A stretch of 64,000 bases of DNA from contig CM022665.1 of assembly GCA_012295275.1 (NCBI GenBank), positions 18,042,001 through 18,106,000 on the forward strand, written 5' to 3'. Under the pieces are notes generated by a model. The model was not told the origin of the DNA. It saw only the letters and a program-made list of their open reading frames with translations, and ran no database searches. The position numbers and the translations under genes are program-made. Numbering within the stretch: position 1 is the first letter of the stretch; every line of letters begins with the position of its first letter. Below, in pieces: positions 21,701 through 30,060 of the stretch. The stretch comes from Chrysomallon squamiferum. Its lineage: Eukaryota; Animalia; Mollusca.

Positions 21701-24700
21701 GTTTCAGATTTGTGAGTTCTCCAACATCTTTAGGTAGTAAGGGGTTCCAGCTGTCTTGGACAGAAGTCAGTGAAGATGGTAAGTTTCCATTTTATTACTA
21801 TTATTATTATTATTATTATTATTATTATTATTATTATTATTATTACTATGATTATTATTATTATTGTTGTTGTTGTTGTTGTTGTTGTTACTTTAATTAT
21901 TACTGCTATTCTAATTTTTTTTTCTTCTTCTTATTATTATTACTTTTATTATTGCTATTCTTCTTATTATTATAATTATAATTATTATTATTGTTATTAT
22001 TATTCTTATTATTGCTACTACTATATATATATATATATATATATATATAGTAAGTTATTTAAAAAATGGATATCTTTGTTCAAATTCAGAGAGAGAGAGA
22101 GAGAGAGAGAGAGTTATTAAGTGTCATTCATTTCAAATGATTGTGTTATCATCTGCTGCCAACATAACTTATTCTTTTTCAACACAGCAAGCCATTTGTT
22201 TCTCATGCACTTTGTTATTGTGGTATATTTATAATATGAAATAGCCAGATATTATTTACTGTTGTTTACTATTGTTTACTATTGTTTATTCTTCCTTCAT
22301 GAAGTAATATCATTTTATTATCATGTTTCACTTTCATGAAGTAATCATTTCTGAACTGTTCTTAACTTCATGAAATAAACATTTATTGATTATTTTTTAC
22401 TTTTCGTGAAATAAAAGTTGTTTCATTCATGAAGCTGGATATATTTAGCTATTATACACACTTCATGATGTCATACTGCTATATGCTATATTGTTTGTAC
22501 TTTTTGATGTCAGTTACCTTTCTTTTCTATATTGTATGCAAGGTCACAAAGTGAGTGTATTCTTGTTGAAAAACACTTGTTTACAACATACAGTGAGACA
22601 ACTGTTTGTTATTTAAATTCATGAATGACATTTGTTTACTTTAACAGTTCTTCATGAAAATATTTTCTAAACTGTAACATTTACTTCATGAAATAAAATA
22701 TATTATCACTTCATGAAATTAGATATAAAATTTCAAGAAATAAGACATAATGTCAACTCATAAAATAAGATGCATCATTTCATGAAATATGTTATTTCAT
22801 GAGATTAAAACATTGACACTTTAGTATAATATCTACTTCATGAATAAGATATAACGTTTCTTCATGAAATAAGAAACATATTATTTTAGTATATTTCTTT
22901 TATGAAATTAATATTACCAAGTCAAAGAGAATTGTTACTAATTTTTCTCACTTCTTGAAAAAACTTTTATTACTTCATGATGTTAGACATGTTTACTGTT
23001 GTGACAACTTCCTGAATTATGTTGCTGCTTGTTTCAGACACCTGCTATGGTTTTAAATGTGCTAAGAACAACTACTGCATTTCTCCTGAGTTAAAATGTA
23101 ATAAACTGCCAAACTGTGGCATGGGAGATGACTCTGATGAAACTTCACAATGTAAGTCTTCTGTTTTTTAAGTTAAATATTTTTTAGACTTTTTTTTTTT
23201 ACTGAAATTTTGTAATTTGTAATTATTTTATGTATATTTTTTATTTAAAATTATAATAATATTTTTTAATTTCTGTGTTAAAAAGTAAAATTCATTTATT
23301 ATTTTATTTATTTATTTTTTTATAAATTTTTTAGTTATAGATTAACAAAATATATAACAGAAAAACAAAATTAAAATAAAAAATTAAAATTTTAAAACTA
23401 AATTGTATTATTAATAAAAGAAATACCCAGATTACATGCTAAAATTTTAAATATTAACAAAAGAAATTGTAATTTTCATTCAGTTTATATAAATCACAGT
23501 TCAAAAAAAAAAAAAAAAAAAAAAAAAAAAAAAAAAAAAAAAAAGAGAATAAAAAATAGAGAGTACTTAACTTTGTCTTTATATACAAAAAAAGTAAATG
23601 TTTATTAAGGAATTTAATTACAAAATTTAAATTTAATTTTTTTTTTTTTTCCTGTTTCCAAGAACTGATCAAATTTATAACATTCAGAAACATAAATACA
23701 CTTTGCTGTCCAAGCATAATAATATATAATTAATAATGTTTAGTTATATAGTCTTATTAAATCTCATCTCATTACATTTTTGGAACAGTATACTTCAGCT
23801 TTTTCTGAGAAACTGTTTCATTCAAAATTAAATTCTTAAAAATAACTTCTGCTTGGGTCTGATGTAATTAAATAATTTGAAGTTTTACTTAAATATACTT
23901 AATTTAAAAAAAAAAAAATAGAAAATAGAAACAGAAGATTAAAGAATCAAATAAGAGATATTGATTCAAAAAGGGATATTGATTCTCAATAAATAAAGAA
24001 AAAAGAAAAAAGAAAAAAATTAACGATACAAATAAGGGATAAAGAAAGATATTACTAATTTCAGACTGCTGTTTATCTTTTAGATTATTGCTCATCATAT
24101 TTTAAAATTAATTATATACCTATATCTATGTCTGTCTTTCTTTGTCTATTTTTTTAATAATTATTTATAATTTATTATACGGAAACGTATATATATATTT
24201 TTTTATTATTATTTGTACATTCTGTGTTTAAACCAATTTATTAGACTCCTTGTAGATTAAATCAAAATAGAATTTCTAGAAACAGTTTATGACATTTTCC
24301 AATGCTTAGAAGAAAAAAAAATGTCAACCCTTTATGTCCTAGTATACACAGCCCCGACTATTCTGTTTAATTTTTATATTTATTTATTTTCATTTTCAGT
24401 TTATTATTATTATTTTTTTCATTTCTAAGGTCTTAATAAGGTGTTTAGTATTTAGATTTCAGATTTTTTTTTTTTTTTTAAATTTAAATATATTGTACTA
24501 ATTTCAATCTTATGTTTTAATAGTGGACTTGAAACAAAACTAAGAACAAAAATATATAAAGGTATTTATCATTAAAAAGATATTAAATCAGAAATTTAAA
24601 GAAAAGAACTATATTGTTTCTGGCTATTAAGTATCAGTTATTATTGTAAATTTTAAAAATCAAAAAGAAAAAAAGAAAAAAGTAAAGAAAAGAAAGAAAA

Positions 24701-30060: not shown

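Follow-up and report, generated by a model that had tools for sequence, protein, structure and literature searches.

A gene for a five-CUB, one-LDLa membrane protein of the gastropod Chrysomallon squamiferum contains, between its LDLa and transmembrane (TM) exons, a cassette exon that carries a stop codon and whose inclusion probably replaces the TM segment and its C-terminal VSMV tail with a predicted GPI-signal peptide. The gene lies on the forward strand of the window, i.e. the whole stretch of 64,000 nucleotides analysed here, in the numbering of which all positions are given.

Upstream of the cassette, a single open frame runs across 13 exons (3536-23151), namely 12 exons coding for the five CUB domains and the LDLa exon. 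The former, which were delimited by their AG/GT ends, the open frame and tblastn of Gigantopelta isoforms, are found at 3536-3713, 14780-15000, 15306-15513, 16230-16480, 16728-16766 and 17225-17408 (exons 1-6) and at 18105-18292, 18938-19154, 19550-19752, 20211-20384, 21040-21163 and 21708-21778 (exons 7-12). The LDLa exon (23038-23151) ends with a phase-1 donor, its last base, T, being the first base of the sixth Cys codon. The TM and cytoplasmic exon (29795-30060; 98% to P0001) starts with GT and codes for a hydrophobic segment followed by basic residues and the tail to VSMV, and it is followed by a 3′ UTR covering at least 30061-30720, as four RNA runs contain 0.83-0.93 of the words sampled from 29790-30720. 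The gene models share 91-92% identity with the isoforms of Gigantopelta aegis. In the close orthologues Pfam detects five CUB domains and one weak LDLa domain, the latter below the cutoff, which is exceeded by the window's own LDLa exon, and the LEV-10-type order of five CUB domains, one LDLa domain and a TM segment is present in the gene. No convincing match to a signal-peptide exon was obtained anywhere in the 64-kb window; in the Gigantopelta orthologue a hydrophobic helix at residues 18-30 bears on the question of an N-terminal signal peptide.

Orthologues of this gene bear automatic database labels such as tolloid/BMP1 or cubilin, with which they have CUB repeats in common. Such an identity was rejected, since the family, of about 850 aa and membrane-anchored, shows by Pfam only CUB and LDLa domains, with neither astacin nor EGF domains, and tolloids fall outside it in the ectodomain tree. 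Membership of the Neto/SOL-2 group, which has two CUB domains and an LDLa domain, was likewise set aside given the five CUB domains found by Pfam. The AlphaFold model of P0001 contains the expected domains, with the membrane helix at low confidence, and is silent as to GPI. A search of NCBIfam gave no match, that of the ESM Atlas returned generic cubilin/CUB names alone, and that of PDB sequences yielded generic CUB relatives such as cubilin, neuropilin and NETO2. Beyond the stop codon of the gene, tandem repeats with units of 34-35 nt occupy 30725-31139 and 31484-31670, possibly inside the 3′ UTR, and an unbroken ORF on the reverse strand (37774-38430), coding for a Tctex-1 domain (Pfam E 5.6e-28), converges on the CUB gene.

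The cassette itself (24776-24870, forward strand, 95 nt) begins with GC, which completes the sixth LDLa Cys codon as TGC, whereas the GT of the TM exon gives TGT; it encodes 29 residues, in the order small residues, spacer and hydrophobic stretch, up to a TAG stop (24865-24867), and its donor, GTAAGA, lies 3 nt past the stop. This alternative completion of one codon had been proposed in a first-pass annotation of the DNA and is confirmed in the sequence, as are the AG/GT ends of the four exons on which the proposal was built (23038-23151, 24776-24870, 25820-25858 and 29795-30060). The same annotation called the donor strong: GTAAGA is at that spot, but with a matrix built from the gene's own exons the site proved only moderate, with rank 7 among 331 GT sites, the acceptor being weak by the same measure (rank 53 among 248 AG sites).

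The use of the cassette is documented by RNA. Contigs that include it were found in three of the four RNA runs examined over 24745-24912 (X1, X2 and X3, all of one study), and the three pass from the end of the LDLa exon (its last 30 nt) through exactly 24776-24870 to the start of 29795, so that the junctions anticipated on both sides, 23151>24776 and 24870>29795, are present in each. No contig over the cassette was found in the same interval for run X5, which is not proof of absence; the last exon is present in five RNA runs. The contig of X2, 4627 nt and about full length, has 2408 letters upstream of the cassette, to be compared with 2172 nt of exon inside the window, and 2122 downstream. 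Because both junctions are contained in these contigs, the stop-carrying exon is an internal cassette, the inclusion of which turns the TM exon into 3′ UTR. The possibility that it is a terminal exon was rejected, since the contigs leave it at the donor and run on into 29795. That the inclusion path is the one assembled is a hint that inclusion is common in those samples, although contigs give no levels. The skipped, transmembrane form is on record for Gigantopelta (isoform X2) and other relatives, and Gigantopelta isoform X3 matches the cassette peptide in 26 of 30 residues.

The place of the stop at the end of the exon would keep the inclusion RNA outside the decay rule, the 50-55 nt limit of which has been described for mammals (PMC5437961) and may not be molluscan. 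The distance from stop to junction is 3 nt in the window and 0 and 4 nt in two loci described below (L001 and L027, respectively), and the expectation that the inclusion RNA should escape nonsense-mediated decay is borne out in that this RNA persists, as a distance of 3 nt predicts. These data bear on the idea of a poison-type or truncating cassette, the inclusion of which would cut the amount of functional protein by way of RNA decay or of a secreted or ER-degraded product. Inclusion does lengthen the 3′ UTR, and the distance from stop to poly(A) can also trigger decay (PMC5437961); moreover, inclusion of both micro-exons discussed below would put the stop 63 nt before the last junction, GPI precursors left unprocessed go to ERAD (PMC7125958), and dipterans also carry a non-hydrophobic tail at the same position. 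Since every RNA run with a contig (three in all) shows the inclusion form, since three lineages have the stop within 0-4 nt of the junction, and with the character of the peptide conserved across phyla, we nevertheless regard a poison exon as very improbable.

That the encoded peptide is a GPI signal is suggested by its composition. GPI signals are described as having a small attachment residue (Cys being allowed), a small residue at +2, and 20-30 aa comprising a spacer and a hydrophobic end (PMC7125958, PMC2571997), an unstructured linker ahead of the attachment site being usual according to PredGPI (PMC2571997). From these published criteria a rule of our own was written, which is loose. The window tail passes it with Cys-Gly-Ala, a length of 29 aa and the junction Cys as the only candidate site; a polar spacer precedes a hydrophobic stretch with an 11-residue hydropathy of 2.86, no Lys or Arg follows this stretch, in agreement with the small-spacer-hydrophobic tail free of basic residues already pointed out in the first-pass annotation, and there is no cytoplasmic domain. 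Attachment at the Gly next to the Cys was rejected for the window species, as Pro would then be at +2. In the AT-rich introns of the window the rule is passed by chance at 13 of 500 YAG sites, and by 13 of the 89 ORFs that measure 18-50 aa (15%); it is the RNA, with conservation in addition, that lifts the cassette above this level. On such sequence features, ER cleavage after the junction Cys with addition of GPI appears likely.

A difficulty for the GPI reading is that in the LDLa pattern the sixth Cys is expected in a disulfide bond, and the proposed attachment Cys should thus be bonded and would have no loose linker ahead of it. The awkwardness of a GPI on a disulfide-bonded Cys would be avoided if the cassette encoded an uncleaved TM anchor that hardly reaches into the cytoplasm; the switch would then drop the PDZ tail and leave the protein integral to the membrane. 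The tail has about 15 hydrophobic residues and then six more, the 19-residue hydropathy of the Gigantopelta tail (2.24) is near the mean of the TM class (2.54), and the second form of LEV-10 is reportedly without an intracellular part. We consider an uncleaved anchor improbable all the same: the window tail has no basic residues past its hydrophobic stretch, the mean hydropathy of the short-tail class is lower (1.92), the Mytilus tails, of 21 residues, reach only 1.1-1.2, and an anchor of this kind would offer no reason for the conserved small residues at +1 and +2 or for the narrow range of lengths.

The latter features, which a GPI signal would account for, emerge from a comparison of relatives, for which 396 proteins were fetched; 83 of more than 1600 aa were excluded, 91 were without a recognizable LDLa end and 222 had one. 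These 222 proteins contain 146 distinct tails past the sixth Cys, i.e. 107 transmembrane tails and 39 short ones, 28 of which pass the GPI rule, whereas 11 fail: five are stubs, three are basic tails of dipterans, two miss narrowly and one comes from an odd Biomphalaria model. Short hydrophobic and TM forms are joined at the same cysteine in 18 lineages (the pairs being hand-picked): among molluscs, seven gastropod genera, a cephalopod cluster, two bivalves and a chiton; elsewhere, two hymenopterans, a beetle cluster, Drosophila willistoni, a mosquito, the horsehair worm Gordionus and a cluster of the nematode Panagrolaimus. The residue at +2 is A, G or S in 14 of the 18 short tails against none of the 18 TM forms, and that at +1 in 12 against none, in lineages that share kinship and are not independent trials, so that Fisher p values are not true probabilities here. 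Short tails measure 21-31 residues in 16 of the 18 lineages. Among molluscs their identity is 24%, compared with 73% for the TM segment, a low value that is expected of a GPI signal because the latter is removed by cleavage. The junction residue of Pomacea X4 is made Gly by a micro-exon ahead of the cassette, the small triad being kept. The chiton and Panagrolaimus tails start with Cys-Lys, a beginning that reading into the intron would likewise produce. A universal switch is spoken against by the absence of short hydrophobic tails among the members listed for scallops (0/6), an Octopus cluster (0/7), Lineus (0/7), Owenia (0/2), Centruroides (0/8) and ticks (0/15 listed, of 41).

In the ectodomain tree (FastTree, 42 hand-chosen rows and 702 columns, with weak deep nodes), the window gene stands beside that of Gigantopelta and the order is roughly that of the species tree. 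Nematode members of the family were found in Trichinella, Pristionchus and Panagrolaimus; in the last case, the short-tail protein and a separate ORF of the TM exon (P0327 and P0377) are both recorded on a contig of 3396 nt, which fits a single transcript. As a separate observation, a third C-terminus past the same Cys occurs in Diptera (P0262, P0387 and P0393, from hoverfly, Drosophila willistoni and mosquito, and near 1623 of locus L036). It is basic, non-hydrophobic and conserved, probably results from intron read-through, and would yield a secreted form.

A similar layout is met in arthropods. A metagenome scan gave 78 loci, of which 49 have an LDLa end and 34 of these 49 a donor-like sequence within the Cys codon. 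In three contigs that lack introns and have pancrustacean proteins as their closest matches (L001, L012 and L019), the LDLa end is followed by a 77-nt stretch that runs from Cys-Gly-Ala to a stop and then directly by the frame of the TM exon, the stop being 0 nt from the junction. L001 and L012 count once because they are 99.9% alike; L019, 81-89% alike to them, fails the GPI rule by one extra Arg (it has two terminal Arg). The insect-like genomic locus L027 contains a predicted cassette with a GTGAGT donor 4 nt past its stop, at one of 22 sites scanned, the TM exon lying beyond the end of the contig. The Cys-Gly-Ala start is shared by L027 with L001 and the window. Of the 18 genomic loci scanned, 17 yielded no passing cassette that also had a donor, among them seven annelid-like loci in which the TM exon was located and a nematode-like one; in the copepod- and mite-like loci without a passing cassette the gaps are only 60-146 nt. 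Comparison of the seven annelid-like loci revealed no conserved intron block of note. The coexistence of tail and no-tail forms across protostomes is supported by the 18 lineages, and the cassette layout recurs in arthropod transcripts.

How old the switch is depends on how these likenesses are weighed. Since alternative exons common to several animal phyla are rare (10.1101/2021.02.24.432780), the cassette position, phase and end-placed stop shared by snail and arthropods point to an old, selected choice, and from the likeness of the two arrangements the switch is likely very old. The tails of different phyla are, on sequence, too unlike to prove a common origin. GPI-like tails may instead have arisen several times at the conserved phase-1 intron, which would concern the origin of the switch only, leave the switch real and be compatible with GPI attachment. 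Presence is patchy, identity among the tails is low, AT-rich introns readily give rise to GPI-like ORFs and exons common to phyla can be convergent (10.1101/2021.02.24.432780). Against several origins stand the alike position, phase and end-placed stop, the Cys-Gly-Ala start mentioned above, and presence in four mollusc classes as well as in hymenopterans, beetles and flies; repeated origin is possible, although somewhat unlikely. The history favoured here is that the cassette probably arose in early protostomes and was lost in some lines.

The class I PDZ consensus is a C-terminal S/T-X-hydrophobic sequence, and VSMV fits it as a predicted ligand. Among the 107 distinct TM tails, 49 end in S-X-V of the VSMV kind; such a PDZ-type end is not universal, because many arthropod tails end in D-S/T-V (26) and nematode tails in FYG. 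The TM forms of Pomacea (P0010, P0062 and P0063) run past VSM into another tail and so lose the PDZ-type end, which suggests a donor within the last codons, with 30052-30060 as the counterpart region in the window.

Two in-frame micro-exon candidates lie between the cassette and the TM exon, on the forward strand, and neither is used in RNA contigs X1, X2 and X3. The unconfirmed 39-nt candidate (25820-25858) has AG/GT ends and a donor of rank 3 among 331; use of the junction 24870>25820, proposed in the first-pass annotation, finds no support in the three RNA contigs, all of which skip the candidate, or in the three Gigantopelta isoforms, from which it is absent. A 21-nt candidate (27250-27270), which that annotation had overlooked, seems, on sequence, to fit better, being the best of seven AG..GT 21-mers (BLOSUM score of 25 versus 5 for the runner-up) and the likely counterpart of a seven-residue insert in Gigantopelta isoform X1. 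It has a weak acceptor, a zone without AG over 98 nt, TGC at -20 and CTAAT at -26, and in sequence terms it therefore shows the features of eMIC-type neural micro-exons, i.e. a weak 3′ site, a long AG-free zone, and UGC and CUAAY close upstream (10.1101/2021.02.24.432780). The linker between LDLa and TM segment has lineage-specific optional inserts of 3-13 residues in bivalve and gastropod orthologues, and several of the bivalve inserts end like the window's 39-nt candidate.

Among known systems, the nearest in domain order is LEV-10 of Caenorhabditis elegans, a type I membrane protein that likewise combines five CUB domains with a single LDLa domain (PMC9083331); the resemblance to the window gene is one of domain order. 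A weak hint of sequence kinship comes from eat-18, which shares exons with lev-10 and for which a primer has been published (PMC7173930): the open frame remaining in the primer contains a seven-residue stretch resembling the start of the family's first CUB domain, a pattern ten times denser in proteins of 700-1300 aa than in cubilin-like ones. The LEV-10 ectodomain alone rescues receptor clustering (PMC9083331), and for this reason a form that is only anchored could work. Other CUB (plus LDLa) membrane proteins resembling the window gene are Neto/SOL-2, NETO1/2 and SOL-1, with the differences that Neto has two CUB domains and a TM segment in both of its forms, and SOL-1 four CUB domains and no LDLa domain. 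LEV-10 reportedly has two splice forms, one of them essentially without an intracellular region. In Drosophila, CG42613 is a candidate orthologue of the window gene, further names considered being CG32432 and K03E5.1. CG42613 is a CUB-domain membrane protein that is neuronally expressed and RNA-edited, of unknown function (PMC11118563, PMC3396368). NETO1/2 end in PDZ motifs, and splicing provides the Neto of the fly with two different intracellular tails (PMC9083331).

A choice between a TM and a GPI anchor on one ectodomain, as proposed for the window gene, has precedents in NCAM and in Drosophila FasIIa/FasIIc (PMC3527400). Those proteins are of the Ig family, whereas the window gene inserts inside a Cys codon a stop-carrying cassette that is spliced onward to the TM exon. 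Such splicing being already known limits the surprise, and the present family would be a further case of it. In the portions covered of the literature searched (including PMC9546428, PMC13734247, 10.1101/426205, PMC2949867, PMC3396368, PMC11118563 and PMC6219715, and with subscription papers outside the coverage), there is no report of a GPI form of LEV-10 or of any member of this CUB-LDLa family.

In the mechanism proposed, skipping of the cassette would give the transmembrane form, as in relatives; with inclusion, the ER transamidase would cut after the junction Cys, i.e. the sixth Cys of the LDLa domain, followed by Gly and Ala, and attach GPI. In this way, the same five-CUB ectodomain would be linked to PDZ scaffolds of the cytoplasm in one form, while in the other it would have a lipid anchor, be mobile and be capable of being shed. 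Its partner can at present be guessed, by likeness to LEV-10, SOL-1 and Neto, to be a neurotransmitter receptor. A more far-reaching proposal, which is tentative and which we hold to be rather unlikely, is that one cassette predating the split of molluscs and arthropods toggles a synaptic organizer of the LEV-10 family between a PDZ-scaffolded TM form and a form with GPI on the last Cys of the LDLa domain, the tail-less form of LEV-10 and the fly isoforms being unrecognized products of the same GPI switch. If true, a single ancient switch would decide whether receptor clusters are tethered intracellularly or kept in place solely from the exterior. For this protostome CUB-LDLa family, which is unstudied and has fly and nematode members, the finding offers a concrete hypothesis, that of one ectodomain with two or three anchors, and suggests asking whether the tail-less form of LEV-10 is GPI-linked.
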